Shown here: in pieces, positions 22,718 to 56,870 of the stretch
How the letters are laid out: every line of letters starts with the position of its first letter
How positions within the stretch are numbered: position 1 is the first letter of the stretch
Notes under the pieces: generated by a model
Database searches by the model: none
What the model was told of the DNA's origin: nothing
Seen by the model: the letters and a program-made list of their open reading frames with translations, nothing else
Program-made: the position numbers and the translations under genes
From: Prochlorococcus sp. AG-679-M23
Lineage (GTDB): Bacteria; Cyanobacteriota; Cyanobacteriia; PCC-6307; Cyanobiaceae
DNA length: 64,000 bases
Direction of reading: 5' to 3'
Assembly: GCA_003208875.1 (NCBI GenBank)
Contig: QCUR01000001.1
Location: 1 to 64,000 of the forward strand

Positions 22718-24304
22718 ATGAGTAAAAATTTACTAAAAAAAGAGAGAGATCCCTCAATATTAATTTTAGATTTCGGATCTCAATATTCTGAATTAATTGC
22801 AAGGAGAATAAGAGAAGCAGATGTATTTTCTCTTGTTGTTAGTAACTTTACCTCTATCAAGGAGATTCAGGATATTAATCCAAAAGGGATTATTTTAAGT
22901 GGTGGCCCAAGTTCTGTTTATGAAGATAATGCACCTAAATGTGACGCAAAGATTTTTGATTTAGGGATTCCAGTTTTGGGTATATGTTACGGAATGCAAT
23001 TAATGGTTAAAGAATTGGGAGGTGAAGTTACCCCAGCAATTAATAAAGCTGAATATGGCAGAGCACCAATAAATATTGATTGCGAAAGTGATTTGCTATC
23101 TAATGTCCAAGACAAATCTATTATGTGGATGAGTCATGGGGATTCTATAAATAACTTGCCTGAAGGATTTATTAAAATCTCTCATACAGAAAATACGCTG
23201 CATGCTGCAATATCAAACAAACAAAAGAAATTATTTGGTGTTCAATTTCATCCTGAAGTTATACATTCAGAATTCGGAATGACGGTAATTAAAAACTTTG
23301 TTTATTCTATTTCTAAATGTAAGGCCGATTGGACTACTGAAACATTTTTAGAGGAAACAATTCCAAGAATTAAGCAACAAGTAGGTGATAAGAAAGTTTT
23401 ACTTGCTCTTTCTGGCGGCGTAGATTCATCAACCCTCGCTTTTCTTCTCAATCAAGCTATTGGGAAACAACTTACTTGTATGTTTATTGATCAAGGCTTT
23501 ATGAGAAAAGGTGAACCTGAATTTTTAATGGAATTTTTTGATAAAAAATTTCATATTAAGGTTGAATATATTAACGCTAGGGAAAGATTTATTAATAAAT
23601 TAAATGGAATAACTGATCCAGAAGAAAAACGCAAGATTATTGGTAGAGAATTTATTAGAGTTTTTGAAGAGGAGAGTAATAGATTAGGCCCTTTCCAATA
23701 TTTGGCTCAAGGTACTCTTTACCCAGATGTTATTGAGAGTGCTGGAACGAATTTAGATCCTAAGACTGGTGAGCGAATTGCAGTGAAAATAAAAAGTCAT
23801 CACAATGTAGGCGGTTTGCCAAAAGATTTACAATTTAAATTAGTGGAACCATTAAGAAAACTTTTTAAAGATGAAGTAAGAAAGGTTGGGGGTGCTTTAG
23901 GATTGCCAGATGAAATTATAAAAAGACACCCATTTCCTGGTCCTGGCTTAGCAATAAGAATTTTAGGTGAAGTTTCTCATGAAAAACTAAACTGTTTGAG
24001 AGATGCAGACTGGATAGTAAGAGATGAAATAAAAAAATCAGGTCTTTATGATGATATATGGCAAGCATTTGCTGTTCTTTTACCTGTCAAGACTGTCGGT
24101 GTAATGGGAGACAAACGGACCTATGCTTGGCCAGTAGTTTTACGATGCGTATCAAGCGAAGATGGTATGACGGCTGATTGGTCGAGAATTCCTTATGAAA
24201 CCTTAGAGAGAATTTCTAATAGAATCGTTAATGAAGTAGAGCAGGTTAATAGAGTTGTTTTCGATATTACTAGTAAGCCTCCAGGAACAATTGAGTGGGA
24301 GTAA
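22718..24304 (+). CDS. guaA: GMP synthase (glutamine-hydrolysing)
   Basis: [29 protein letters not shown] and C-terminal KPPGTIEWE. Confidence 0.98.
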
Positions 24305-24540
24305 TTAAAGGGGTATAAAGTCAGTCATAGTCTAAAAAAAGCGGTTACACGTGGGTTACACGTGAGAATCTGTTATCCTATTTGCAATGGATCTCAACAG
24401 CGAGGTTACACGTGGGTTACACGTGAGGGTAAAATCTCATCTCTATAGAGAAATCGTATAAAAATAAATTTCTCTACACTTTCCACATTTTTATGGTTTT
24501 ATTTTCTGACTAATGGGTACTAAAGGAAAGGGTGCAAAAA
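24284..24540 (+). repeat. att site 1 (guaA end plus right arm)
   Basis: GAGTGGGA at 24293-24300. GGTTACACGTG x2 at 24343-24364 and again at 24404-24425. TCTCTATAGAGA at 24440-24451. Confidence 0.9.
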
Positions 24541-24593
24541 CTTATGAATTTTACGAAGAGTTACCCATGCTTTATGGAATTACTTATCCATAA
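24513..24593 (+). pseudogene. Truncated N-terminal gene stub (possibly the element's integrase)
   Basis: MGTKGKGAKTYEFYEELPMLYGITYP*. A homologous stub, MGIKGRNTKI*, lies at the same offset after att2. Confidence 0.35.
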
Positions 24594-24717
24594 AATATTT
24601 TCATTTATTTAAATAGAGGAATAAGATGAAAAGACTTAGAACAAAATTAGATCATTGGATTGCTAGAAATCCAAAAAAAAATGGTTTTTCTTTCGCGTCT
24701 GAAGAAATTGCATAATT

Positions 24718-25974
24718 GTGATGTTTTTTGGAGATTCTGCCTATCAAGTAAATCAAACTATTCACCCAACTGAATTATTGCCTGAATCTCCATATATTGG
24801 GTTGGAACATATTGAACAAGAATCTCTTCAACTAATTGGGATAGGAGACGCTTCAAAAGTTACTAGTAACAAAAGAATTTTCAGAAAAGGAGATATTCTT
24901 TTTGGAAAACTTAGACCTTACTTTAGAAAAGTTATAAATGCAGATTTTGATGGAATTTGTTCAACGGATATATGGGTGATACGTCCAAAAGAAAATATAG
25001 ATAGTAATTTTCTATATTATTGGTGTTCTAGTTGGGAATTCATAAATTTTGTAAATTCAGCAAGTGAAGGGACAAGAATGCCTCGAGCAAAATGGGAAGT
25101 TGCAATAAATCATGAAATTCCTAATCATACTTATGAAAACCAAAAGATAATTGGAAATATACTTGGTTCTCTTGATAAAAAAATACAACTAAACAAAAAA
25201 ACTAATTACACACTTGAAGAAATAGCGAAAGCACTTTTCAAATCATGGTTTATTGATTTCGATCCAGTAAGAGCAAAAGCAAAAGGACTTTCAACTGGAT
25301 TACCTGATGAGATTAGTGATTTATTTCCTAGTTCTCTAGAGAACTCTGAATTAGGAGAGATACCAAGTAATTGGAAAAAAACCTCAATTTCTCAATTGAT
25401 AGAAATAAACCCAATAAGAAAAATTACAAAAAATACAATTGCTCCATTTCTTGAAATGAAGGGAGTTCAAACTTATGGACATACTTCAAAGGGAGTTTAT
25501 GATCGCCAATTTACTTCTGGTACAAAATTTCAACAAGGGGACACCTTATTGGCAAGAATAACACCATGTCTCGAAAATGGTAAAACCGCTATGGTGGATT
25601 TTCTAGATGAGGGACAAATTGGATGGGGATCTACAGAATTCATAGTTCTTAGTGGTAAAGAAAAAATACATAATCCTTTTGTTTACTATTTATCTAGATC
25701 AGAAAAATTTAGAGAATATGCAATTAGAAATATGACTGGATCAAGTGGAAGACAAAGAGTTCCTCCCAATATTTTATATGATTTTAATATCGCAAAACCG
25801 CCAACTAATATCCTCAATTTATTTTCAGAAATTGCTTATTCATTTCTTCAAAAAATAACTATTGGATCACAAGAAAATAGTTCACTTGAAAAAATTAGAA
25901 ATACTCTTCTTCCAAAACTTATTTCAGGAGAACTTAGTACATTTGATGCTGCAAGAAAGATTCAAGATCTTTGA
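24718..25974 (+). CDS. hsdS: Type I restriction-modification specificity subunit (orphan)
   Basis: Two TRDs (KGDILFGKLRPY; GDTLLARITPCLENGK), conserved spacer QKIIGNILGSLDKKI..LEEIAKALFKSWF, and C-terminal RNTLLPKLISGEL. Confidence 0.9.
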   Translation: MMFFGDSAYQVNQTIHPTELLPESPYIGLEHIEQESLQLIGIGDASKVTSNKRIFRKGDILFGKLRPYFRKVINADFDGICSTDIWVIRPKENIDSNFLYYWCSSWEFINFVNSASEGTRMPRAKWEVAINHEIPNHTYENQKIIGNILGSLDKKIQLNKKTNYTLEEIAKALFKSWFIDFDPVRAKAKGLSTGLPDEISDLFPSSLENSELGEIPSNWKKTSISQLIEINPIRKITKNTIAPFLEMKGVQTYGHTSKGVYDRQFTSGTKFQQGDTLLARITPCLENGKTAMVDFLDEGQIGWGSTEFIVLSGKEKIHNPFVYYLSRSEKFREYAIRNMTGSSGRQRVPPNILYDFNIAKPPTNILNLFSEIAYSFLQKITIGSQENSSLEKIRNTLLPKLISGELSTFDAARKIQDL

Positions 25975-26054
25975 TCTACTTCTTCTATAAAAAAGTTTTT
26001 CTCTACAAAAAAATGATATTTTTAGTTGTCATTTGGTTGCTTTTGATGCATTTC

Positions 26055-26405
26055 AGTTACACGTGGGTTACACGTGAAGAAACCTGTCTTATTCTTCCCT
26101 CAAATCAACTGATATGACTATGTCTCTGGCAGTACAAATTCTCGTGACTATCGAGTGGGAATAACAGATAGGTTATAAACCTAGTTATAGGCGCAAAAAG
26201 TTGGTTTCACGTGGGTTTCACGTAGAATATTTACTACCTATTTGCAATGGTTTTCGATGGCGGTCTTTCACGTAAGTTTCACGTGATGCAAAAAGTCCGT
26301 CTCTATAGAGAAATCATAAAAGAACTTATGTCTCTACACTTTCTTTTTTTATAGAGCGATATTTTTTGATTTATGGGTATAAAAGGCAGAAATACAAAAA
26401 TCTAA
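26055..26405 (+). repeat. att site 2 (left arm, core and right arm)
   Basis: Arm pair at 26055-26076, core GAGTGGGA at 26153-26160 (VTIEWE*), arm pairs at 26203-26224 and 26264-26285. Colinear with att1 at offset 1860. Confidence 0.9.
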
Positions 26406-30570: not shown

Positions 30571-30716
30571 GAATATTTGTTTGTTATTTGGATATCATGA
30601 TATAACCTATAAATAACAATAAACATTTAAAGTTAATTTGCCGGATTAGTATTAATAAATACTATTTGTTATACTATAAGTGTGTATCGTTTTCTGTAAT
30701 TTACATTAATCAACTA

Positions 30717-31187
30717 ATGCCTACTAAGCTTGATAGGGTACAGGTTCTTTTTCAGAAAGAGTTATTTAAAAAGCTTAAGGTAATTGCAAAAATTGAGCGC
30801 AGATCGTTATCTAGTATGGTTGGAAGCATTGTAGAAGATGCAATGAATTCTAAAAAATATCAATCTCTTTTATCGAAGGCAAAGTCAGATGATTTAAAAT
30901 CAAAAATTGATGAAAGTAAATTCTTAATTAATGAAATTTTAAAATCTAAGAGTTCAAATCAATCAGATATTGATGAAAATTCTAAATTAAAACAAATTGA
31001 AGATATACTCTCTTTAATATCAGAATCTCATAAAGAATCATTGGAGGAATCAGTGGGAAAAGATTTATTATTAGTAGAAGAAGCTTTGAAACCAGACGGT
31101 TTAATTGAAGAATTAGAATTGGAAACAGATTATAAGATTAATAAAATGAATGTAATGCTCAGTAAAATCAATAAAAATAAGGATTAA
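30717..31187 (+). CDS. Ribbon-helix-helix (CopG/Arc-like) DNA-binding protein with an acidic helical tail
   Basis: MPTKLDRVQVLF (beta strand), KELFKKLKVIAKIE (helix), RRSLSSMVGSIV (helix). Confidence 0.7.
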   Translation: MPTKLDRVQVLFQKELFKKLKVIAKIERRSLSSMVGSIVEDAMNSKKYQSLLSKAKSDDLKSKIDESKFLINEILKSKSSNQSDIDENSKLKQIEDILSLISESHKESLEESVGKDLLLVEEALKPDGLIEELELETDYKINKMNVMLSKINKNKD

Positions 31188-31209
31188 ATTCGACACTAAG
31201 AGATAAATA

Positions 31210-31524
31210 ATGAATAAATTTGAAAAAATGGAAAAGAGAATGGATGAGTGGCAGAGCGGAATAAGAATTCTCTATAAAGATATCCAAACAATCCGTAACT
31301 GGACGGATGAGCAGGTTTGGAAAGAACTTGAAAATGAGATAAAAAGAATTACTCCTGAGGGTCAATTTGGCGAGGACGACTTGGCTTGGACCAGAGAAAT
31401 TCTTACATCAAAAAGAGATGTTACTTTATGGGAAGCGGTAAGACTTACTATTAGATTTAAACATTCAACGCCTCTGTTAGATGCTCTTGGTAATCTTAGA
31501 GCTCGAGATAAATCTGGAACTTAA
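31210..31524 (+). CDS. Hypothetical protein (paralog A)
   Basis: 104-aa ORF that aligns by eye with 31589-31897. Confidence 0.75.
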   Translation: MNKFEKMEKRMDEWQSGIRILYKDIQTIRNWTDEQVWKELENEIKRITPEGQFGEDDLAWTREILTSKRDVTLWEAVRLTIRFKHSTPLLDALGNLRARDKSGT

Positions 31525-31588
31525 ATATCTATTATGTTTTTTTATAAGCAAATAGAAAATAAGTTTTTTTCAAGAATTTATTTATAGT

Positions 31589-31897
31589 TTGACTAAATTT
31601 ATAGATACATCTGGTTTTGATAATGTCGAACAAGTCAGAAAATGGTATCTAGGTATTCAATCAACTTTTAAGCAAATACAGCAACAAAATAATTATGATA
31701 AAAAACAAGCTTGGGATAAATTAAAAATAGAATTACTTAAATCAGTTGCAAAAGAAGATTTTGTACAGAATGATCTTGAATGGGTTGAAGATCTCCTTCT
31801 TCATGAAATAATTCCAACTACTGAAGAAGCCTGTAGATTTGAAAAAAAATATCCTAATCAAACTCCTTTAATTGATGCGCTTGCCAAAATCTTCTAA
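31589..31897 (+). CDS. Hypothetical protein (paralog B)
   Basis: 102-aa ORF with a TTG start. Shares W..GI, QxW, DLxW, EAxR and TPLxDAL with paralog A. Confidence 0.75.
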   Translation: MTKFIDTSGFDNVEQVRKWYLGIQSTFKQIQQQNNYDKKQAWDKLKIELLKSVAKEDFVQNDLEWVEDLLLHEIIPTTEEACRFEKKYPNQTPLIDALAKIF

Positions 31898-31909
31898 TTT
31901 ATTTTTGAT

Positions 31910-32848
31910 TTAAATAACACTTACCCCTGTAAACGTTTTGATATTATCTATAGTTTTTTTTGGAGTTTTTATAAGATCTTCATATGTAACTTCTATTAAA
32001 TTGTCCTTAGGAATAAGATTTTTCATTATTTGCCATTTATCTAATATGAAGGATCTAGTAAACTTTGCATCTTTCTCTGCGTTCCCAAGATATGGAATAA
32101 AACCAAATTCTTTATTAAATGATTTGATAGATTTTTCTATACTTTTCACATGATCGTATTTACGTTCAATGTAAATAAATTTTGAGTTGGGAAATAACTC
32201 AAGTAATAAGTCAACTCTCGTTGTAAATGCTGGAGCTTTATTGATAAAAACTTTTCCAGGTAAACCATCATGAATCCATGCCCATTCAAGAAGTAATTTT
32301 AATTTTTTTTTGAAATCTAATGTAGCTTTCCATTTGTACCATCTTTCTAAATCCTTAGATAATGACTTTCCAAGACCAATTGATGTTGGAGGATGTTCGC
32401 AACTCAATCTCATTAATGCAATATCTAACTCTTGAGGTCCCTCTGCTAATAATGGGACCCAATCAAAAAATCTATTTTTATAAGATGGTATAAATTTGCG
32501 AAAAAGTTCTTTAAATATTAAGGCTGCCTGAGGGCAACATGAAAACGTATTTTTTATTGTAGCTGCTTTAGTAGCTTTAACTATTTCTGTGTGGAGGTAT
32601 GTTGTTCCACTTCTCCATGCACCTATAATAAAAATTGGATCAGGCATATTCTTTGGCTTCTTGTAAAGAATTTTTTGCAACCAATAAAGAGGTTCAGCCA
32701 ACCAACCGAGTACAATATTCTGGAATAAATAAAAAGAAATAATAGGAAATCTATTAGCTTTTTTTAACAACTCAAACTGAACAGAAGGTCTTAAGCATCC
32801 AATAATAATTAAGCGTGGATTGAAAAACAATAATCTATTTATATTCAA
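31910..32848 (-). CDS. Sulfotransferase family protein
   Basis: PIFIIGAWRSGTTYL 5'-PAPS-binding loop, INKAP, FPNSKFIYIER and VTYEDL..P motifs. Confidence 0.85.
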   Translation of the reverse strand: MNINRLLFFNPRLIIIGCLRPSVQFELLKKANRFPIISFYLFQNIVLGWLAEPLYWLQKILYKKPKNMPDPIFIIGAWRSGTTYLHTEIVKATKAATIKNTFSCCPQAALIFKELFRKFIPSYKNRFFDWVPLLAEGPQELDIALMRLSCEHPPTSIGLGKSLSKDLERWYKWKATLDFKKKLKLLLEWAWIHDGLPGKVFINKAPAFTTRVDLLLELFPNSKFIYIERKYDHVKSIEKSIKSFNKEFGFIPYLGNAEKDAKFTRSFILDKWQIMKNLIPKDNLIEVTYEDLIKTPKKTIDNIKTFTGVSVI

Positions 32849-32980
32849 AATAAAGATTATCTATGGAACTTTCGATAAGTCAATCAGTACTTATTTCTTT
32901 TGTAAGATACTCAAACTAATCTTTACATCTCTATGAAAGTAAAGTAATAAATATTTTTTCTTAAGGTTCGTTGCCTACTA

Positions 32981-33254
32981 GGTTTCACGTGGGTTTCACG
33001 TGGCGGAATACGTGTTATAATATGTTCAGACCCATTGATATAACTGTCTTTTTTATTAACCTTTTTGGAGGGACTATTGAGTGGGAGTAACTAAAGAGGT
33101 ATAAACCTTGTCATAGTCTAAAAAACTCGGTTAAACGTGAGAATCTCTTATCCTATTTGCAATGGATCTCAACAACGAGGTTAAACGTAGGTTACACGTG
33201 AGGGTAAAATCTCATCTCTATAGAGAAATCGTAGAGTTTTAAATTTCTCTACAC
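32981..33254 (+). repeat. att site 3 (left arm, core and right arm)
   Basis: GGTTTCACGTG x2 at 32981-33002, core at 33079-33086 (GTIEWE*), arm repeats at 33129-33139 and 33179-33200. The right arm is nearly identical to that of att1. Confidence 0.9.
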
Positions 33255-33263
33255 CTTAATAAA

Positions 33264-33581
33264 TTAGTTAATTATTTTTTTAATTTTTTCTAAATTCCAT
33301 TTATCAAATATTAATTTCATTTCTCTTTCGTAGTATCTTACTTTTTTTGAGAAAGGTAGTTGTTGAATAATTATCCCAAAGGGAAATTTAAAAAAAGAAG
33401 AAACATAAACAATATAAAACTCGACAAATGAAGGTTTTGGTGGGAGAGGTAAATTTTTTAAATATGCCCAATCAATGCATGGTTTTAGTTGCTGATCACT
33501 AGCAGCAATATTTTTTCTACATCTCCAGTAAGAGAATAGATAAATGCCAATAAAAATCGGTAAAGGAAGAAGTCGTAACAT
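33264..33581 (-). CDS. Hypothetical membrane protein
   Basis: 105-aa ORF with hydrophobic segments. Confidence 0.6.
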   Translation of the reverse strand: MLRLLPLPIFIGIYLFSYWRCRKNIAASDQQLKPCIDWAYLKNLPLPPKPSFVEFYIVYVSSFFKFPFGIIIQQLPFSKKVRYYEREMKLIFDKWNLEKIKKIIN

Positions 33582-33741
33582 TAAATATCAAGGATGATTT
33601 TTCTTCTCATTTACTCATATACCTGTTTGATAATAAATGGATAGTTTAGTTTTTATGGAAATTTTGCTTAAATGATTTTTAGAATTTTCAATTATTTTAT
33701 GCGATATCTCTATACAAATCTCCTAGATTTTTAAATCAAAA

Positions 33742-33927
33742 TCATTCAAAAAGTATTTCTTCAGGATTTCTGTATTGAATTAAACCTTCATATTCTGAAT
33801 CAACCTTTTTAAGATATTCTGCTACATGCTTATAACCTTGATCAAAAACAATTTCAATAACCAATTCAGCAAGTTTTTTGCCATTAATTAACAAAAGAGG
33901 ATATTTATCTTCAAGAATTTCAATCCT
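33742..33927 (-). pseudogene. C-terminal fragment of an Mrr/AspBHI-like restriction endonuclease
   Basis: Startless frame RIEILEDKYPLLLINGKKLAELVIEIVFDQG...RNPEEILFE*. EDxYPLLLINGxxLAE resembles the end of the Mrr catalytic domain. Confidence 0.5.
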
Positions 33928-34000
33928 TTATCTGTTTTGTGAAAAGAAATAGTGTGTAAAAATCACACTGAATTGAAATCTTTTTCATTAGATTAAAAGA

Positions 34001-34070
34001 ATCAGAAACTCCTCACACACTAATTTCTGATCACTAAACGCCCCGATTCGAAAGAATTAGGGTGTTTTTT
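34001..34070 (+). ncRNA. Yfr1-motif small RNA (Yfr1/Yfr10-like)
   Basis: Conserved ACTCCTCACAC at 34008-34018 inside the stem ATCAGAAA/TTTCTGAT, then a GAAA-loop terminator hairpin and T-run. TAGATT -10 at 33989-33994. Confidence 0.8.
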
Positions 34071-34170
34071 AATGCAATTAAGTCTTTTAGGTCGTAACTG
34101 GTATATGTGACAATTAAGTATTATTACTCACCCCTTCCACGAAAAAGAAAGATATGTAATGAATATTTTT

Positions 34171-34267
34171 GTGTGTAGGAGAGGTTTTGCTGAAACAGTG
34201 GAAACAAGGAAACACTTGATTTAGTAAAACCAGGAAATGACCTCTATAAATAGGGATCTTTTTTTTT
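34171..34267 (+). ncRNA. yfr2: Yfr2-family small RNA
   Basis: 5' GTGTGTAGGAG, stem GGTTTTGCTGA/TTAGTAAAACC enclosing the GGAAACAAGGAAACA loop, then a terminator hairpin and T-run. Ends are approximate. Confidence 0.85.
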
Positions 34268-34509
34268 GCCTAATTTTTTCGAACGAATACTTAAATTTAA
34301 ACAAAATAAAGGGGGATTTGTTTGCCCCTTTCGATTCTTATGTAATCATTATCTAAAAAGTCGGTGAGTGCTACTTACTCCTGAATTATTTCTACTCCTG
34401 TTGAATGGGAAAATATAGTCGTGACAACCACAAAGCACTTCTATTCGAGTAAAAATACTCTATGAATTTTTAGTTAATAGGTAGAAAATAAAGATATATA
34501 GGAGGTTTT

Positions 34510-34692
34510 ATGAAACTATTTAATCAATTTAATATCCTTCCAAAATATTTAACGGCATTTAACTATGCAGGTTTAAATCTGAATGAAACTCCAAACGAAC
34601 TTGAGCAATGTCCTATAGAGTTTCAAACTTACTGGGATAAAGAATGTAGGGATAATCCAACTAATCAGAATTGTTTAATTTATTGCGACTGA
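34510..34692 (+). CDS. Small protein with a CP12-like C-terminal motif
   Basis: Strong RBS AGGAGG; ends YWDKECRDNPTNQNCLIYCD. Confidence 0.7.
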   Translation: MKLFNQFNILPKYLTAFNYAGLNLNETPNELEQCPIEFQTYWDKECRDNPTNQNCLIYCD

Positions 34693-34736
34693 GTTATTAA
34701 TTTTTATTATTTATCTAATAAATTTTTTTAAAAAGT

Positions 34737-35003
34737 GGTTTCACACGGGTTTCTCACGAGATAATATTTAAAATTATCCCTTGAGATACACTGCTATGAC
34801 TGTATTTTTAATTTTAATTATTGGCGGTAACATAGAGTGGGAATGAAAATAAGCTATAGACCTAGTTATAGTTAAAAAAAATAGGTTTCAAGTAGGTTTC
34901 AAGTAGGTTTCACTTAGAAAAATTTGTGTTATAATTAACTCAAAACCATTGCTATAACTAATTTTTTATTCACTTTTTTGGAGTGACTATTGAGTAGGAA
35001 TAA
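34737..35003 (+). repeat. att sites 4 and 5 (collapsed empty unit and terminal attR-like site)
   Basis: Arm pair at 34737-34758, core at 34835-34842 (GNIEWE*), arm triplet at 34884-34916, and degenerate core GAGTAGGA at 34992-34999. Confidence 0.85.
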
Positions 35004-35047
35004 AAAATACTTTAATTTTTTATCTTTAACTTTTTTACAAAATTATT

Positions 35048-35761
35048 ATGGATGAAACCATTAAATTAAGTAGGTCTACTGTTGAAAAATATCTTAATTG
35101 CCCTAGATGTTGCGTTCTTGATAAAAAACATAAAATAAAACCTCCATCATTACCATTCACCTTAAATATTGCTGTAGATAATTTATGTAAAAATGAGTTT
35201 GATTATTATCGTGAAAGACAGGAATCTCATCCTTTATTTATTGAGCATAATATTGATGCTGTACCTTTTAAACATAAAGATATAGATATTTGGAGAAGTA
35301 ATTTTAAAGGAATAAGATATAAATCTACTGAACATAATTATGATTTTGGTGGTGCGGTCGATGATGTCTGGGAAAAAAAGAATGGAGAGTTAATTATTGT
35401 TGATGTAAAAGCAACATCTAGAAATAATTTTGATTGGTTTGAAACTTTCAATAAATATGATTATGCAAAAGCATATAAAAGACAATTAGAAATGTATCAG
35501 TGGTTATTTAGAAAAAATGGTTTCAAAGTTGCAGATGAAGCCTATCTTCTTTATTTTAACGGAAAAAAGAATGAGAAATTTTTTAATAATCAGTTAAAAT
35601 TCGATGTGCATTTTATTAAGTTAAAGTGTTCTGCGACATGGGTAGAAGGCAAAGTTATTGAAACAGTAAAACTGCTCAGATCTAATATGTTCCCTTCACC
35701 ATCTTTTAAATGTGAATATTGTAATTATTTAAAAAAGCGTTGGCAGTTGTCACAAAATTAA
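35048..35761 (+). CDS. PD-(D/E)XK nuclease superfamily protein (RecB/AddB/Cas4-like)
   Basis: LSRS..YLNCPRC, GAVDD, IVDVK, QLEMY and C-terminal CEYC motifs. Confidence 0.85.
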   Translation: MDETIKLSRSTVEKYLNCPRCCVLDKKHKIKPPSLPFTLNIAVDNLCKNEFDYYRERQESHPLFIEHNIDAVPFKHKDIDIWRSNFKGIRYKSTEHNYDFGGAVDDVWEKKNGELIIVDVKATSRNNFDWFETFNKYDYAKAYKRQLEMYQWLFRKNGFKVADEAYLLYFNGKKNEKFFNNQLKFDVHFIKLKCSATWVEGKVIETVKLLRSNMFPSPSFKCEYCNYLKKRWQLSQN

Positions 35762-35850
35762 TTAATCACATTGAAAAATAATATTATTGGATAATTCTGG
35801 AAAAATTTTTAAATAAAGATAATCTTTAAGTAGACAATAAATTTTAGATT

Positions 35851-36459
35851 TTGGTTAAACCGAAAAGTCCTGATAATAAAATTAGCAATCATTTACAACA
35901 AGATGTTGTAAAAATTGCAGGCAAAACAATCTTTATTAATCCATTTTTGTATTGGAGAAGGTTTGATGAAAATACCAATAGATGGTTAAGAGAACCAGGA
36001 CAGATGTCAGAAGAGCAAATCCAGTCAAACAGAAATCGGTTTTATCCTGAAATTGACTGGGCTGATTTAAGTCAAGATCAAAAGCTCGTAAAAGATGCAA
36101 GTATAGAAATGTTTCTGAAGACTTTGGAGCTTATAAGCACATTTCATCCTCAGCTTAACTCTGGACAACTATTAGAAGTTGAGAGGAAAATGGCAATTAC
36201 AAAAAAGCTACCTTTTGAAAGGTGGGTAACAAAGTCTTTTGCTAAAAAAGCTAGAGCTGAAGAAAATGAGAAAAGGAAATTTCAAAGAGATAGATTTATC
36301 AGAAGTTGGAAGGAATGGCTAAGCCTTGAAAATACTCAACAAGCTCTACTACCTATAATTATCATTGTATTTGTCTCAGCATTTATTGGTTGGTCTTCAG
36401 GTGTTTCAAAAAACAGTTGTAATCCTTACTTTGAACAAAATTTAGATCAGTCAATATAA
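35851..36459 (+). CDS. Conserved hypothetical protein with a C-terminal TM helix
   Basis: 202-aa ORF with a hydrophobic segment LLPIIIIVFVSAFIGW. Confidence 0.75.
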   Translation: MVKPKSPDNKISNHLQQDVVKIAGKTIFINPFLYWRRFDENTNRWLREPGQMSEEQIQSNRNRFYPEIDWADLSQDQKLVKDASIEMFLKTLELISTFHPQLNSGQLLEVERKMAITKKLPFERWVTKSFAKKARAEENEKRKFQRDRFIRSWKEWLSLENTQQALLPIIIIVFVSAFIGWSSGVSKNSCNPYFEQNLDQSI

Positions 36460-40907: not shown

Positions 40908-42683
40908 TTAGTAGTGATTAGCAACTTTCCTATGATGAACGGCTGTTTTACAGGATAAATCAGAAACGCTCCCATTTTTAACTATACCGTAAATAATCCA
41001 ATGATCTGGAGTTTCTAATCGTGAACTTACTTTACAATCTAAAAATGCGAGAGAATCAGAAAGTACTGGTCCACCATTTGCGATATTGTTCACTACATCT
41101 ACATCAGCAAATCTATCTGCTCCAGGTGCAAATCTTTTTAAAAAATGTCTAAACATTTTTTGATAGTTATCTTCTCGTAAGATATTAACTACAAAACCTT
41201 CTCCAACTTGCATATAAGATTCAATAGCTCTATCTTTTGCTACTGCAACTGTAATGCCTGGCGGACTGAAACTTGCCTGACTGACCCAGCTTGCTACCAT
41301 CGCGCTTTGTCTAAAAGTCGAACCTTCTCCCTGGCTAGCTGTAACTACATATAAACCCCCACTTAATCTCCCTAAAGCTTTATCCAGATTTGAATCAAGG
41401 CTTTTCATTGAAGCAATATTTTTCTTCTTATTAATTAATTGTCCCAAGTCGGTTCCAGCTTCTTCAAATTGTTGATAGATAATAGGATCTGGAATATTTT
41501 TAACTCTTAGAGGTGAAAAGGCTTCTTTTTGTCCTAATTCTCTCAACTTGCTTGCTAATGAGTCTATCGGTTCATCATTTCCTCCAAAAGCATCGTAAAC
41601 TGCCGTAAATTGTTTAGGCTTTAATGCGGCAAAAAGAGTGCCAAAAGACTCTTTTAATTCATTATCAGACTTAACTGGCCAGGTTGGGATTACTACGGCT
41701 TTAGATTCTGAAATTAAACCTGTTAATTCCTGAGAATCTGAAGATCTTAAATCAATTAATTGAACCTGTGCATCTGCCTTACTTATTCCGTGAGATATAG
41801 CTTGACTTAATCGATCACAATATCCATAATCACTGATGTAGCAAACAGATACAAATTCATTGCCTTTACTCTTGTTACTACTCCACTCTGAATACTTTTC
41901 TTTCCAAAAATTTACTTGATTGTGAAGTAATGGCCCATGACCCACAGCTATAGTTTTAAGTCTAGGTAACTTATCTATTCGTTTGATAGCTTGTAGAACA
42001 CTTCTTGCGTTCGGGCCCATAAGGCAATCGTAATAAAAACGAAAATCTTCATAAATTTCTTTTTGATCATTATCAAAAAATTCATCAGAGCAATAATGTA
42101 ATCCAAAAGCATCGCATGTGTATAAAACATTCGTACCGTGATCGTAGGAGAAAATGGTATCTGGCCAATGTAAATTTGGCGCACTTATAAATTCAATATT
42201 ATGATTTACTCCACTTGTGAGGTTAGTTCCAAGATCTAAATATTGTCCACTTTTTACTTCTAAACTTTTAAATGGAATATGTATTTGATCCTCAATAAAT
42301 TTAAGCGCTAATTTTGAACCAACTACTATTATTTGTGGATTAAGAGTTAAAAGGTTTCCAATTAAACCTGAGTGGTCTGGCTCTGTATGACTTGTAATTA
42401 AATAATCAATTTCTTTGGGATTTACTTCTCTAAGTAATTGCTCAAACCATAGTTTTTCAAATTTAGCGTGGCTTGTATCAATTATTGCTAGTTTTTGGCC
42501 CTTAATGATAAAACTATTATAAGTAGTTCCATTTCTTAATCCAAATTCAATATCAAATCTACTTCGATCCCAGTCAAGAGATCTAATTGCAATTGTGTCA
42601 TCTGCAAAAACTTTCTGTTGCACAGATAATTTTTGCTCAACTTTATTCATCTCTGAAGTACTTGTTTTTGCAGAAGTTATCAT
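40908..42683 (-). CDS. flv3: Flavodiiron protein, Flv3-type
   Basis: HTEPDH, LHWPD, CDAFG and GHGP motifs plus a C-terminal flavin reductase domain. Confidence 0.85.
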   Translation of the reverse strand: MITSAKTSTSEMNKVEQKLSVQQKVFADDTIAIRSLDWDRSRFDIEFGLRNGTTYNSFIIKGQKLAIIDTSHAKFEKLWFEQLLREVNPKEIDYLITSHTEPDHSGLIGNLLTLNPQIIVVGSKLALKFIEDQIHIPFKSLEVKSGQYLDLGTNLTSGVNHNIEFISAPNLHWPDTIFSYDHGTNVLYTCDAFGLHYCSDEFFDNDQKEIYEDFRFYYDCLMGPNARSVLQAIKRIDKLPRLKTIAVGHGPLLHNQVNFWKEKYSEWSSNKSKGNEFVSVCYISDYGYCDRLSQAISHGISKADAQVQLIDLRSSDSQELTGLISESKAVVIPTWPVKSDNELKESFGTLFAALKPKQFTAVYDAFGGNDEPIDSLASKLRELGQKEAFSPLRVKNIPDPIIYQQFEEAGTDLGQLINKKKNIASMKSLDSNLDKALGRLSGGLYVVTASQGEGSTFRQSAMVASWVSQASFSPPGITVAVAKDRAIESYMQVGEGFVVNILREDNYQKMFRHFLKRFAPGADRFADVDVVNNIANGGPVLSDSLAFLDCKVSSRLETPDHWIIYGIVKNGSVSDLSCKTAVHHRKVANHY

Positions 42684-42797
42684 ACTATTATTCTTTTGTA
42701 TTATGACTTTAGTTAAATACAATATAAATCCGCGTGAATCTAAGTGTGGAATTACCGAATTTGTTTTTTAATCACTTCATTATTGATACTGTTATAA

Positions 42798-51330: not shown

Positions 51331-52569
51331 TTGATTCAGCTTGAGACTAATTGGTCATTTGTGAGCGATGGTGAAGAAAAACCTGATGGTTTTTCTTTCG
51401 CAGGGATTGCTGCGGGATTAAAGAATTCGAATAAGAAAGACTTGGCTTTAATATTAGCCCCAGAGAATAGCATTTGTAGTGGCTTGTTTACACAATCAAT
51501 AGTTCGAGCATCCTGTGTAGATATTTGTGAACAAAGGATTAAAAAGTCTTCAGGTCTTATAAGAGCAATATTAATAAACTCTGGACAAGCAAATGCCTGT
51601 ACAGGTGATTATGGTATTCAACATACTTTGTGTGCTACGAAGGAGGTCTCACAATTATTAGGAATAAATGAAGAAGAAGTTTTAATGTGCTCAACGGGTG
51701 TAATTGGTATACCCATTCAAATAAAAAATTTAATTGATAATTTACCTAAATTAGTCAAGGAGTTAAAAACAAATAGTTTTCAGAATGCTGCAGAAGCTAT
51801 TTTAACTACTGATTTAGTTGACAAAAAAATAACTATAGAAACATTTATTGAAGGGAGAAAGGTAAAGATATCTGGTTTTGCAAAAGGATCAGGAATGATT
51901 TATCCAAATATGGCTACTATGTTGGCTTTTGTTACATGTGATGTTGGTGTTGATAAAGAACTTTGGGACAAGATGATTTCTATTGCTGTTAAAAAGTCTT
52001 TTAACGCTATTTCGGTGGATGGAGAGACAAGTACTAATGATGCCTTTATAGGAATAAATTCAGGGAAAAAAATTGATAAGAAATTTTTATCAAAGATTCA
52101 AACAGGTATCGATATTGTATGCCAAAGTTTGGCAAAAAATATCGCTAGAGATGGAGAAGGCGCAAATTGCTTGCTAGAGGTTTTGGTTGAGGGAGCAAAG
52201 AATAATTCAGATGCAATTAAGATAGCTAAATCTATATGTAATTCTTCACTGGTAAAAACTGCAATTCATGGTTGTGATCCAAATTGGGGCAGAATTATTT
52301 CAGCTGCTGGTAACTCTGGAATTGATTTTAAATTAGATGTCGTTGATTTATATATTGGAGACTTTCAGATTTTGGAAAAGGGTAAGTTAAATAAATATGA
52401 TTCCAAAAAAGTTGCCAATTACATAAGTACAAAAATGAATGGTAAATATTTAGTTGAGGATATAGTACGTATAGCTCTTAATCTTAATTCTGGTTCAGAA
52501 AAAGGAACTGCTTGGGGTTGTGATTTGTCTAAAAAGTACGTTGAAATAAATAGCGAGTATACGACCTAA
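51331..52569 (+). CDS. argJ: Ornithine acetyltransferase / N-acetylglutamate synthase
   Basis: NSGQANACTG, KGSGMIYPNMATML, DGEGA and YVEINSEYTT motifs. Confidence 0.96.
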   Translation: MIQLETNWSFVSDGEEKPDGFSFAGIAAGLKNSNKKDLALILAPENSICSGLFTQSIVRASCVDICEQRIKKSSGLIRAILINSGQANACTGDYGIQHTLCATKEVSQLLGINEEEVLMCSTGVIGIPIQIKNLIDNLPKLVKELKTNSFQNAAEAILTTDLVDKKITIETFIEGRKVKISGFAKGSGMIYPNMATMLAFVTCDVGVDKELWDKMISIAVKKSFNAISVDGETSTNDAFIGINSGKKIDKKFLSKIQTGIDIVCQSLAKNIARDGEGANCLLEVLVEGAKNNSDAIKIAKSICNSSLVKTAIHGCDPNWGRIISAAGNSGIDFKLDVVDLYIGDFQILEKGKLNKYDSKKVANYISTKMNGKYLVEDIVRIALNLNSGSEKGTAWGCDLSKKYVEINSEYTT

Positions 52570-54279
52570 CCCCAAATCCCCTCTGGCACAGTTGATTACA
52601 GAGATATCATAAAGCAGATACCACTAAAATACCACTAAATTTTCATCTATCAATATTTAAAGTTATTTTTTCTGAGGTCTCTATTTAGTGAATTGAAATC
52701 AGTTTTATTTGATGCCAAATCCTTTGACTGCACACTTCCTAGTGCGACTTTCTCTAATCTTTCTAATCTTGCTAAAAGTTGTTTGTTTGTTTCTTCAAGA
52801 GAAATAATTTGTGTCTCAAATTCTTTTTTCTCCTTCATACTAATAAGCGTAGGTTTTACTGGTTTGCCTAATTGCCAGATAAATCCTGCTCTAGCAGAAA
52901 ACTGATCTTCAAAATCACCTGGATAATCTTGACCAGGCATTGTCATTGAAGCAGCGTAATTAATTGATAGTTTTTCATTAACTTTTGAAGCGCAACCTCC
53001 AGAAAAAGCAAAATCTCCTCCATGTGTTCCTGTTCCAAAACCACATGCAAGAGTTGTATCAGTAGGAACTGTTGGTAAACCTGTTAAAGCAGCACTCAAT
53101 GCTCCAACATTATTGATTGATTGTTCTACATCTCTACCATTTATTAATAATTTAGTTCCATTTGTATAGTCAATAGGAATTGGATTTCCTGCAGCATCTT
53201 TTGCATAAACTTTTTGTCTACCATTCTCCTCTTTTGTAATCCAAGAGTTTTCACCTATATGAAGTTCATTCCCTACATATTTAACAAGACTTTTACCGGT
53301 TGACCCTCCCTGACTTATTCCATCATTATCAATTCTAAGTAATTCATCAGTTCCTTCTCCTCCCAATGAAACGAATTTCGTATCTGAGGAATCATCACAG
53401 TCACTGTCTGTTGAGTCACATTTTTTCTCAATAGTATCGTTTAATTTCTGTATCACACCCATATTGATTGGAGTTGCCCCGCTTGGTAATCCTGTTACAT
53501 CAATGTATCCTTCAAATGCGTTTGTATCGATATCATATTTCCGATATCTTTTTCCTTGACCGCCCCCACGATCCCCTTCAAGAAAATAAATTTTTCCATT
53601 ACGCTCATCAACAGTAAAGTCATTAGATGTGAAATTATTAGTACTCACATCTGGAAATATATCTTGTTTTAGTAAAGTTACTGCACCATTTGAAGAAAGT
53701 TTATATAAATTTGAAGTTGAATCTCCTCCATCATTTACTTTAGTAGGATCTTCAGCAACGAAGAATCCTAAATCAGTGGTATTTGTGGAAACTTCACCTG
53801 CTAATGAAGTAAAAGGCGATAAAAGTAATGTAGAAGTAAAAAGAGAACTAACAAGTTTTTTTGAAAAGTTTTTCATGAGACACAACTTTTTTAAAAAGTG
53901 ATATTGACTTATTAATAATTTAAGTGTAAATACTTAATGATTTAACTATTGCTTAATATTTGTTATTTTTCCAGAAAAATAACTTTTTATGTTCTTACAT
54001 AAGATATTTAATAATTATCAAATTGAGGCAGAAAAAAGTTAAATTAAATAGCAAGTTAATCTTTTAATTAATACTTAAAAAATAAATACTAAACTTAAAA
54101 AATATTTTTAATTGAAACTTTCCATACCGGTTTTATAACACCTATGTAGTGGTATCAATGGATTTCACTTGTAAAAAAAGTTTTGTACCACTAAGATACC
54201 ACCAAATTTCCGAGTAAAAACCTTGTCATAGCAATGCTTTTCAAGGTTGGTTGAAATCAATAGCGAATACACTACTTAA
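52540..54279. mobile_element. Small island integrated at the argJ 3' end
   Basis: 30-bp direct repeat at 52540-52569 and 54250-54279, both encoding VEINSEYTT*. Internal 11-bp arm pairs at 52617-52638 and 54184-54205. Confidence 0.85.
52650..53876 (-). CDS. Secreted surface protein with a YadA-like anchor domain and C-terminal coiled coil
   Basis: Signal peptide; INNVGALSAALTGLP...CGFGTGTHGGDFAFSGG..VNEKLSINYA resembles a YadA anchor. Confidence 0.7.
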   Translation of the reverse strand: MKNFSKKLVSSLFTSTLLLSPFTSLAGEVSTNTTDLGFFVAEDPTKVNDGGDSTSNLYKLSSNGAVTLLKQDIFPDVSTNNFTSNDFTVDERNGKIYFLEGDRGGGQGKRYRKYDIDTNAFEGYIDVTGLPSGATPINMGVIQKLNDTIEKKCDSTDSDCDDSSDTKFVSLGGEGTDELLRIDNDGISQGGSTGKSLVKYVGNELHIGENSWITKEENGRQKVYAKDAAGNPIPIDYTNGTKLLINGRDVEQSINNVGALSAALTGLPTVPTDTTLACGFGTGTHGGDFAFSGGCASKVNEKLSINYAASMTMPGQDYPGDFEDQFSARAGFIWQLGKPVKPTLISMKEKKEFETQIISLEETNKQLLARLERLEKVALGSVQSKDLASNKTDFNSLNRDLRKNNFKY

Positions 54280-54514
54280 TTTTTAGCAGCTCAATTGGTA
54301 AATATTCGTTTATATAAAGAAAGAGGATTGAAATAGTTCCTATTACAGAACCAATAAAACTTCCAATAAAATAATTTAATATCTTGGGTTGTTTGATTTG
54401 TGAGTTTTCTCCATTTTCTATTTCAAAAGCAGGAGAATCAACTACTTTTAGGCGCTGATTAGTTGTTGGTTGTTTAAGTTGTTGGTGTCGGATGAGTGCT
54501 TCGAAATCAGGCAT
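54272..54514 (-). CDS. Small membrane protein downstream of the ParA-like gene
   Basis: MPDFEALIRH... with a C-terminal TM helix. Its stop codon overlaps the displaced argJ end. Confidence 0.55.
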   Translation of the reverse strand: MPDFEALIRHQQLKQPTTNQRLKVVDSPAFEIENGENSQIKQPKILNYFIGSFIGSVIGTISILFLYINEYLPIELLKIK

Positions 54515-55119
54515 GGAATTTGAGATGCAATAGAACAATAGGCAGACCAGCCCGTCATTCGACGAGGATCTGATCTTCCTAAATCGTCTACAGCTTCAAA
54601 TACTGCATTTCCAGAGGCTTCTGCTTTATCAAATGCTGAAAGTAAAGGAATAAATGTATCAAAAACGTGTAAACCGAAATTTTCTAACGCTCCCTTAGCT
54701 TGTTGAGCTGCTTTTTGTTGTCTAAAATCTACTTTTACAATTACAACTGCATGGTTAACTTTTAAAGTATTTAATAAGCTGGCTAATTCAACAGTTAATT
54801 CAACAGACCTCGCTTTTGCGGTTGTGGGTAGAATTACTAAATCTGATCCGTATGCAAGATGTTTAAGTTCTTCTGTATCACTGCTTGCTTGCCCATCTGT
54901 AATAACAATTTCCGAGGATCTTGAGGCTTTTGCGGCTGAACTAACTGGAAACACGGGAAATGGAAGGTTTCCTCTGGATGAGTAGGCTAATGCTGATCTG
55001 TTTTTATCAGCATCAACTATACATACCTTTTTGCCTTCAGAATGCCATACACTTGCAAGGTGAATACTTGTACAAGTTTTAGCAACCCCTCCTTTTTGAC
55101 CGCAAACAGTAATAAACAA
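54448..55119 (-). CDS. ParA/Soj/MinD-family ATPase
   Basis: Deviant Walker A GQKGGVAKT, plus IVDAD and VITDG. Confidence 0.88.
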   Translation of the reverse strand: MFITVCGQKGGVAKTCTSIHLASVWHSEGKKVCIVDADKNRSALAYSSRGNLPFPVFPVSSAAKASRSSEIVITDGQASSDTEELKHLAYGSDLVILPTTAKARSVELTVELASLLNTLKVNHAVVIVKVDFRQQKAAQQAKGALENFGLHVFDTFIPLLSAFDKAEASGNAVFEAVDDLGRSDPRRMTGWSAYCSIASQIPCLISKHSSDTNNLNNQQLISA

Positions 55120-56385: not shown

Positions 56386-56539
56386 TTGTATTGAGAATTT
56401 TTAATACGTTAAAATATTTTTTTCGTAATCTTTTCAGTATTTATACTCATAAAATTCAAAAAATAATTTCTAATACATTCTTTTGAAGTAAATTTTACAA
56501 ATTAACAAATTATCTAATACCAAACTTGGTCAATTTAAA

Positions 56540-56800
56540 ATGGTGGAGCCCTTCCAGGCTCCTTGGATCACTTGGTTGATAAGGCTGATATCACCCCATC
56601 TCCTTTGAGATCAAGCAGCAACTGGTGCTGTTTGACGGGAGAAACTAACGATTTTGTTAGCGTTTGTGTTTTTGCTCTAACCGAGCAGGCTTCAGTCATC
56701 TTCCTTACGCCCCGTCGAAACCATTACAACCCCAAAAGGAAATGGAGTTGAGCGGAATCGAACCGCTGTCCGAAACATCGGTTGAGATCACCTAGTCCAA
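56540..56800 (-). ncRNA. ssrA: tmRNA, circularly permuted two-piece form
   Basis: The piece ending GGTTCGATTCCGCTCAACTCCA (CCA at 56743) precedes the piece starting GGGGTTGTAATGGTTTCGAC (56733). Tag ANKIVSFSRQTAPVAA* at 56661-56611. Outer ends are approximate. Confidence 0.93.
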
Positions 56801-56870
56801 TTGGACATTTATATTCTGGCAGGCAAAATGAGTATTGAATAGTTATTTCATTAATTTTTTAAATATATAT

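Follow-up and report, generated by a model that had tools for sequence, protein, structure and literature searches.

An integrase-less unit in the 3' end of Prochlorococcus argJ, very probably placed there by site-specific recombination

We analysed a 64,000-nucleotide stretch of DNA from Prochlorococcus sp. AG-679-M23 (contig QCUR01000001.1, positions 1 to 64,000 of the forward strand), hereafter called the window, in which a 1710-bp unit lies between two copies of the 3' end of argJ, the ornithine acetyltransferase gene. Our analysis indicates that this unit is very probably a small non-autonomous integrative element, placed in the end of argJ by the site-specific recombination of a tyrosine integrase. 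We observed directly the repeated gene end, exact empty sites in other genomes, tandem arrays of units, a consistent head/tail pattern in the repeated copies and integrase-bearing elements at the same site.

No photosynthetic cell in the ocean is more abundant than Prochlorococcus, whose exchange of genes has been linked with elements inserting at tRNA genes. The argJ locus would represent a second route, in which insertion takes place in the last codons of housekeeping protein genes and the coding end is rebuilt synonymously. The site is occupied at 42 of 75 resolved loci, mostly by tiny, integrase-less inserts. Their cargo consists mainly of outer-membrane surface proteins and restriction/defence genes, which are traits that set susceptibility to phages and grazers.

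The repeated argJ end and the unit it brackets

In the window, argJ (51331..52569, plus strand) is intact, and its product matches the Pfam ArgJ profile to the last residue (E 1.8e-131, profile positions 2-377 of 377). An earlier note on this DNA had reported that the last 30 nt of the gene recur downstream with five synonymous differences, and this was borne out. The proximal 30-mer (52540-52569) and the distal one (54250-54279) are identical at 25 of 30 bases, and all five differences fall in synonymous third-codon positions (ATA/ATC, GAG/GAA, TAT/TAC, ACG/ACT and ACC/ACT). Both copies encode VEINSEYTT followed by a stop codon, as read directly from the sequence, with the C-terminus of ArgJ taken from the translation of the open reading frame (ORF). 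None of 1000 shuffles of the region 52570-54600 reached 25 of 30 matches (the best reached 21), and no further site with 21 or more matches to the argJ 30-mer was present on either strand of the window. We refer to the two copies as the cores, and to their surroundings in the terms used for phage attachment sites.

An 11-bp doublet of the word TACCACTAA lies inward of each core copy, at 52617-52638 and at 54184-54205, and an inverted TAGTGGTATC is present at 54147-54156; the earlier note had described all three. The regions around the two doublets (52619-52642 and 54186-54209) were also recovered by a repeat search, with 92% identity over 24 nt. The pattern TACCACYAA occurs six times in the window, compared with 0.64 expected, and four of the six occurrences are the argJ doublets. 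The left, or P', arm spans about 76 nt (52570..52645, plus strand); its doublet stands at +46 from the core, and the arm is conserved among elements with other cargo. The right, or P, arm is longer, with about 130 nt (54120..54249, plus strand), and carries two doublets, a conserved motif and a conserved 44-nt spacer. Read from its outer end, it contains a degenerate distal doublet (~54124-54146), the motif with the inverted TAGTGGTATC and the proximal doublet. The two right-arm doublets thus stand at ~-130 and at about -64/-65 nt from the distal core, the -130 one being degenerate. The inverted TAGTGGTATC is probably a site separate from the doublets, since its motif is conserved across elements with quite different doublets.

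Many P' arms also contain a near-perfect palindrome of ~25 nt directly after the recoded argJ stop (e.g. at loci L104, L116 and L153), of which the window has a weak version at 52574-52600. A half copy of the palindrome motif is found again 15-40 nt ahead of the distal core, and in the window at 54147-54167. The palindrome could be an argJ terminator or a protein-binding site.

Between the repeats the unit holds a single gene on the minus strand (52650..53885, likely start ATG at 53876). The product is a secreted protein of 408-411 aa in which a YadA-like outer-membrane anchor is followed by a C-terminal helix; the Pfam YadA_anchor match has an E value of 1e-4 and 22.8 bits, against a cut-off of 22.7, and 23 homologues of the protein were aligned. 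An AF2 model of the cargo protein, used for the anchor topology alone, shows a helix (250-266), four strands (276-336) and a long C-terminal helix (347-382). With a mean pLDDT of 58 this is a low-confidence model, in which the predicted arrangement is that of a YadA-like anchor. Upstream of the cargo gene lies an AT-rich stretch (53886..54119, GC 0.20-0.27), which is the presumed promoter region and has 89.5% identity with its counterpart in the G178 genome copy. Promoter-like sites were not enriched (7 versus 10.1 expected), and Rfam gave no match at gathering score in 52300-54600.

The right flank is conserved and consists of a small convergent ORF of 80-88 aa (54272..54538, minus strand) and a gene for a ParA/MinD-like P-loop ATPase (54448..55119, minus strand; Pfam CbiA E 9.7e-13), here called parA. 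The stop codon of the small ORF overlaps the distal core, the original argJ end, by 8 nt. The same overlap is seen at empty sites, and the convergent arrangement was present in every relative examined. The small ORF and the 3' end of the ParA-like gene also share ~90 nt, read in different frames, again in every relative examined. These could be two overlapping genes, or one gene with a frame change.

Empty and occupied argJ sites across genomes

When 151 genomes of the genus were searched with the DNA of the locus, 134 gave matches. In several of them (G008, G111, G015, G053 and G131) the argJ and parA parts of the query abut with a 30-nt overlap, as empty sites. We also surveyed 80 argJ loci from species-representative genomes, 81 with that of the window, by measuring the interval between argJ and parA, which confirmed the 1710-bp length given earlier for the window unit. 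Of these loci 33 were empty, joined exactly at the 30-mer, 42 were occupied and 6 were cut by contig ends. The inserts at occupied sites range from 217 to 7819 bp. The earlier note had tied its reading to the existence of empty alleles joined at this repeat and of integrase-bearing relatives; the former were found here and the latter are described below. It had also proposed to look for alternative cargo downstream of argJ, and other strains do hold different inserts there. The nearest relatives of the window by flank (argJ 94-96% and parA side 97% identical) are empty. The contigs of four marine metagenome runs likewise leave the window sequence precisely at 52569 and at 54250, and some of them run on as the empty allele.

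The empty sites reveal which copy is the original. All 33 share one 9-nt tail (with the stop TAA in 31 and TGA in 2), and since this is the tail of the distal copy, the distal copy carries the original end of argJ, as had been suggested from its overlap with the neighbouring stop. At occupied loci, the two cores differ from the host form on opposite sides. The tallies, counted by eye from the printed locus table, were as follows. The proximal core has a tail unlike that of the host in 41 of 42 loci, while encoding Glu-Tyr-Thr-Thr-stop in all 42 (stops TAA 18, TAG 14 and TGA 10). The distal core has an exactly host-like tail in 33 of 42, the other nine being off by one to a few bases, and a host-like head in just 3 of 42. 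Between the variable head and the variable tail remains an invariant stretch, the 8-mer 52549-52556: proximal cores depart from the host form on its right side, distal cores on its left.

Because the cores show an attL pattern (host head, element tail) on one side and an attR pattern (element head, host tail) on the other, we infer that strand exchange falls within this shared 8-mer (52549..52556, plus strand; attR counterpart 54259-54266), the position being drawn from the 42 occupied loci. At the loci with a minor host allele of the 8-mer, the elements carry the matching allele (L111 and L124), which fits a requirement for identity in the overlap. In the window, the attL core (52540..52569, plus strand) would therefore consist of the host head 52540-52556 and the recoded tail 52557-52569 of the element, and the attR core (54250..54279, plus strand) of the element head, with one difference (C at 54258), and the original argJ tail. 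From the head/tail pattern, only the last 13 nt of argJ, starting at the third base of the Glu codon and ending with the stop, would come from the element. The earlier claim that the element had recoded the 3' end of argJ thus holds for these 13 nt and falls for the whole 30 nt.

These patterns suggest the following mechanism. The element would consist of one cargo gene and the two halves of a lambda-type attachment site. In the free form these would join into an attP of about 240 bp, in which a 30-nt version of the argJ end stands between the P arm of ~130 nt with its two doublets and the P' arm of ~76 nt with its one doublet. This attP would exchange strands with the argJ end of the chromosome inside the 8-mer 52549-52556. 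After integration, argJ would end in the element's synonymous version of Glu (third base)-Tyr-Thr-Thr-stop, which, being synonymous, would leave ArgJ unchanged, and the original argJ tail would be left at the far end, still overlapping the stop codon of the neighbour. For excision or transfer the unit would depend on a related autonomous element, which would either provide the integrase in trans or land beside the unit and be excised together with it.

Tandem arrays at argJ reach three cores, and at 39 of the 42 occupied loci no integrase flanks the arrays. Some inserts carry no cargo: these mini inserts of 145-272 bp (L124, L135 and L055, the last from G043) consist of the arms alone, with one doublet between two cores, and may arise by deletion between arm doublets. 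Among the 87 insert proteins scanned at argJ, 14 match YadA_anchor. Other cargo includes PEBP-like proteins, SRA-HNH and HNH nucleases, a Z1-domain ATPase and a TdeIII/C5-methylase pair, as well as DUF4379 proteins, TPR and CHAT proteins, DnaB_C helicase and Clp protease. Some inserts other than that of the window hold DnaB_C helicase or small serine recombinases.

Arm doublets, integrases and the possible mobility of the unit

The window doublet pattern, with one mismatch allowed, was found in 21 of 285 genomes of the genus, and 24 of its 25 places are at the argJ locus; the reversed pattern, used as a control, had no places. Within this class, 17 left ends align over about 76 nt (P') and 18 right ends over about 130 nt (P). 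Past the arms these alignments, built from genomes and metagenomes, diverge into unrelated cargo, and conservation of P' stops just after the doublet. A generic doublet search, for 8-mers repeated at 10-12 nt spacing, revealed at least nine word classes at argJ: TACCACTAA, TAACAC, ATGACAC, ATAAACCA, ATAAAACAC, TGCTTACA, CTGTGATTAT, GTGTGATTT and TGTTCAC. Their positions recur, at about +45/+46 (or +67/+89) past the proximal core and, ahead of the distal one, at about -65 and -130 (or -86/-188). As judged from this layout, the doublets are most likely arm-type sites for the N-terminal domain of an integrase, and so many classes at one attB would make argJ a natural system for the diversification of integrase arm specificity.

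Tyrosine recombinases were sought by a Pfam scan of the 87 insert proteins with follow-ups (PF00589 cut-off 27.1 bits). They were present at argJ in three genomes of the genus (G189, G070 and G049) and, among 42 genomes searched of the sister genus g60, in five (G590, G592, G593, G502 and G591). Two lineages can be distinguished. Lineage A (447-468 aa) comprises the integrases of G189, G070, G590, G592 and G593. Those of G189 (468 aa) and G070 (457 aa) are 58% identical to each other, and all five genes start 120-180 nt past argJ. Lineage B (about 500-527 aa) occurs in G049, G502 and G591, at the opposite end of the insert and pointing inward; the G049 protein (527 aa) scores 28.6 bits and that of G502 37.3 bits against PF00589. 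The two lineages align end to end with 22% identity (E 6e-17), and they match other Prochlorococcus integrases of 490-540 aa at 21-35% identity. With the G049 integrase as query, the protein itself was the sole match in the 285 genomes at E 1e-10, and a search of solved structures with the lineage-A integrase gave no related sequence at E 1.

The doublet word tracks the integrase lineage. TGTGAYT stands just upstream of the integrase gene in all five lineage-A elements, and the lineage-B elements carry TGTTCAC in G049 and GTAACACTAA in G502 and G591. The doublets of G502 and G591 are placed at +46, -65 and -130, which is the layout of the window, and GTAACACTAA is one base away from the window's TACCACTAA. 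Integrases next to the doublets, which the earlier note had proposed to look for, are found beside other words, one of them a single base away, and not beside the exact TACCACTAA. In G591, a TACCAC-type integrase-less unit stands in tandem with the integrase-bearing unit, and we take this as an indirect hint that an autonomous element could mobilise units of this type. From these comparisons, an integrase of this kind may act on TACCACTAA arms, mobilisation of the window unit in trans is plausible, and the unit would behave as a cis/trans-mobilisable derivative.

Several results weigh against the reading as an integrative element. The window element has no integrase, its one ORF being the YadA_anchor protein. 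The integrases of the window genome (1.65 Mb in 16 contigs) are limited to a conserved 386-aa protein beside cobO, whose similarity to the argJ integrases is marginal (E 0.14), and a sub-threshold frame of 190 aa. With neither an integrase in the element nor a cognate one in the genome, movement of the unit would need supply in trans or co-excision. Furthermore, no integrase stands beside exact TACCACYAA/TACCACTAA doublets in the 21 genomes, in 69 metagenome stretches or in viral contigs. The lineage-A integrases score below the Pfam cut-off for the catalytic domain (17-18 bits). Finally, the degenerate distal doublet of the window P arm could mean decay, and 11-bp tandem repeats similar to the doublets occur as replication iterons in unrelated viral contigs.

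Among the 69 metagenome doublet stretches, 11 have an argJ-type core (at most one mismatch in a 14-mer) and one has the core of the sister genus, and the remaining ones look like chance matches; at E 1e-4, the lineage-A integrase matched in no stretch. In the viral contigs, the degenerate argJ-core pattern had no matches, and none of 81 candidate stretches was confirmed as a relative of the lineage-A integrase. There were 11 viral-contig matches to the doublet, and those inspected were rejected as unrelated, being iterons beside RepA_N or primase genes without an argJ-like core. Two viral contigs (L080 9990-10030 and L082 6820-6860) contain three to four tandem copies of an 11-bp word nearly identical to the window doublet; standing beside RepA_N and primase genes, these are probably replication iterons with no relation to the argJ elements.

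The absence of an integrase raises the question of whether the unit can still move. It could be a dead relic: an autonomous element would have lost its integrase and the rest by deletion, leaving an immobile remnant, and the diversity at the site would reflect old insertions and their decay. The lack of an integrase in the element and of a cognate one in the genome would fit this, as would the degenerate doublet of the P arm and the cargo-less mini inserts of 217-272 bp (L124, L135 and that of G043), which show deletional decay. Nor was a joint between right and left arm, as expected of a circle, listed in the contigs of the four marine metagenome runs, which cannot show excision in the window strain. 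On the other hand, both arms of the unit are complete and conserved across the 17 left and 18 right ends with unrelated cargo. Over 230 nt, the noncoding P arm shares 90% identity with elements that carry other cargo and whose hosts have an argJ just 77% identical. Moreover, the divergence of the elements does not follow that of their hosts. Compared with the window unit, cargo and arms, the G112 copy reaches 82% identity (argJ of this host, 94%), copies from hosts with argJ 76-78% identical reach 80-82%, and the closest relatives of the window are empty. As judged from these identities, element divergence is decoupled from host divergence. In view of the conserved arms, the identity of the P arm and the decoupled divergence, repeated movement of integrase-less units fits better than independent decay towards one minimal form, and we consider a dead relic rather unlikely.

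In the same metagenome contigs, a joint from 52642 to 54217 (1574 bp skipped, seven other letters between) appeared in two of the four runs and resembles a cargo-less mini unit. It was not counted because its side length of 24-25 is below the guideline of 30.

A second question concerns the doublets, which could be operator or iteron-like sites for a regulator, a replication protein or an excisionase-type factor rather than arm sites for an integrase. Tandem 11-bp copies of nearly the same words flank the RepA_N and primase genes of the unrelated viral contigs mentioned above. The repeat form alone is therefore not diagnostic. What speaks for arm sites is that the doublets stand at fixed distances from the core on both arms (+45, -65 and -130), lie outside the cargo and are present whatever the cargo is, and that their word changes with the integrase lineage; in addition, the integrase-less units encode no candidate regulator. 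The operator or iteron reading thus seems improbable to us.

Exchange of the argJ-parA interval between strains through homologous recombination in the neighbouring core genes, without any site-specific event, as in a replacement island, would fit the conserved genes on both sides and a cargo of mainly cell-surface proteins as in such islands (YadA_anchor in 14 of 87 insert proteins), and is very hard to sustain, since homologous exchange makes no duplicated, recoded gene end and leaves unexplained the strict head/tail asymmetry of the cores, the arrays of up to three cores and the integrases that abut the core. The core copies are also unlikely to be assembly artefacts, because they recur in 42 independent assemblies.

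In the sister genus, all six argJ loci examined are followed by element-type arms. A metagenome contig from this genus (ArgJ 97% identical to that of G400) carries TACCAC-type arms on a different argJ core.

Relation to known systems and other loci in the window

The layout of the unit is that of lambda-type integration, in which attP (~240 bp) and attB share a common core and exchange strands in a short identical overlap, and attP has a long P arm and a shorter P' arm with arm sites in short direct repeats. The argJ element likewise has a shared core, long P and short P' arms and an attP of ~240 bp, with exchange placed in a short identical overlap. It differs in that the unit encodes neither integrase nor excisionase, in that at least nine families of arm words occur at one attB, and in that the core is a synonymous coding end. 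Of the features of a site-specific integrative element, the unit has direct repeats of the target core and exact empty sites and lacks an integrase of its own.

An integrase-less state has precedents. The CIMEs of Streptococcus thermophilus, which stand beside ICESt1/ICESt3 in the 3' end of fda, lack an integrase, are flanked by the attL and attR of an autonomous relative and form tandem accretions. The argJ unit shares all these features, including the protein-gene 3' end; its core and arm layout is the same as that of the integrase-bearing element of G502, with a doublet one base off. Unlike CIMEs, the argJ units are cyanobacterial, have no conjugation module and are much smaller (0.2-8 kb), and their mobilisation is putative.

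The arrays also recall the gene cassettes of integrons, which are mostly single-gene units without a recombinase of their own, exchanged at one chromosomal site. The argJ arrays similarly consist of mostly single-gene, recombinase-less units at one site. However, they have neither attC hairpins nor an adjacent intI/attI platform, and instead show split lambda-type arms, upstream regions of their own and gene-end copies as junctions.

Within Prochlorococcus, the closest comparison is with tycheposons, for which the text of the describing preprint names seven tRNA/tmRNA target genes (10.1101/2020.12.28.424599). The same text mentions "non-tRNA-associated" recombinases and "cryptic" elements, in the portion consulted with no sites named (10.1101/2020.12.28.424599). 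The terms "argJ", "guaA" and "protein-coding" have no occurrences in the preprint text, its supplements and the journal version lying outside this check (10.1101/2020.12.28.424599). Tycheposons and argJ elements live in the same host group, carry adaptive or defence genes, leave degenerate remnants and form tandem insertions separated by partial copies of the target. Unlike tycheposons, the argJ units sit in a protein gene, at its 3' end, and they are built as single-gene cassettes with conserved arms. An integrase, the hallmark mobility/replication genes and a tRNA/tmRNA target, which all belong to the definition of a tycheposon, are absent from the window unit. A tmRNA gene (56520-56832, minus strand), itself a published tycheposon target, is the sole tRNA-like gene of the window and lies 1.4 kb beyond the ParA-like gene.

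In the searchable literature, which here excludes the tycheposon supplements and journal version, we found no description of argJ as an integration site, nor of guaA in Prochlorococcus. One paper that speaks of argJ as well as of integrases and integration sites has it just as a pathway gene. The mechanism is classical, and argJ as an attB and this family of cassettes appear to be undescribed. In other bacteria, the large conjugative element ICERspD18B reportedly integrates at the 3' end of guaA. Like it, the argJ and guaA units insert into the end of a housekeeping protein gene, ICERspD18B differing from them as large and conjugative.

In the window, the guaA 3' end (24287-24304) is repeated at 26147-26164, with an HsdS-like gene (24718-25974) between the copies. 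The locus (24287-26400) contains seven copies of an 11-bp-spaced GTTACACGTG-type word, with doublets on both sides. This agrees with the earlier proposal that the argJ unit has the architecture of the guaA unit and a different specificity. With the same build and another doublet word at a second gene, the ends of protein genes seem to be a general target class.

It is possible, and we propose it tentatively, that argJ and guaA are docking sites of an integron-like cassette exchange assembled from lambda-type parts, with a pool of integrase-less cassettes, diversified arm words and rare integrase-encoding drivers acting in trans. If so, cell-surface and anti-phage genes would be shuffled among the cells of two genera, each cassette carrying a split attP of about 240 bp, with arm words in many specificity classes. 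The argJ site could serve as a simple marker of cassette flow in single-cell and metagenome data.

Two further regions may deserve attention. In genome G056 (L183, 11069-14600), a 492-aa integrase of the same broad family as those at argJ starts ~280 nt past a homologue of the 604-aa gene found in the window at 40908-42722. No tRNA lies in the 18 kb covered, and the homologue may be another protein-gene target. In the window itself, the region 30666-36459 looks like another flexible island, with small unassigned ORFs, an RHH protein, a sulfotransferase and a PD-(D/E)XK nuclease.

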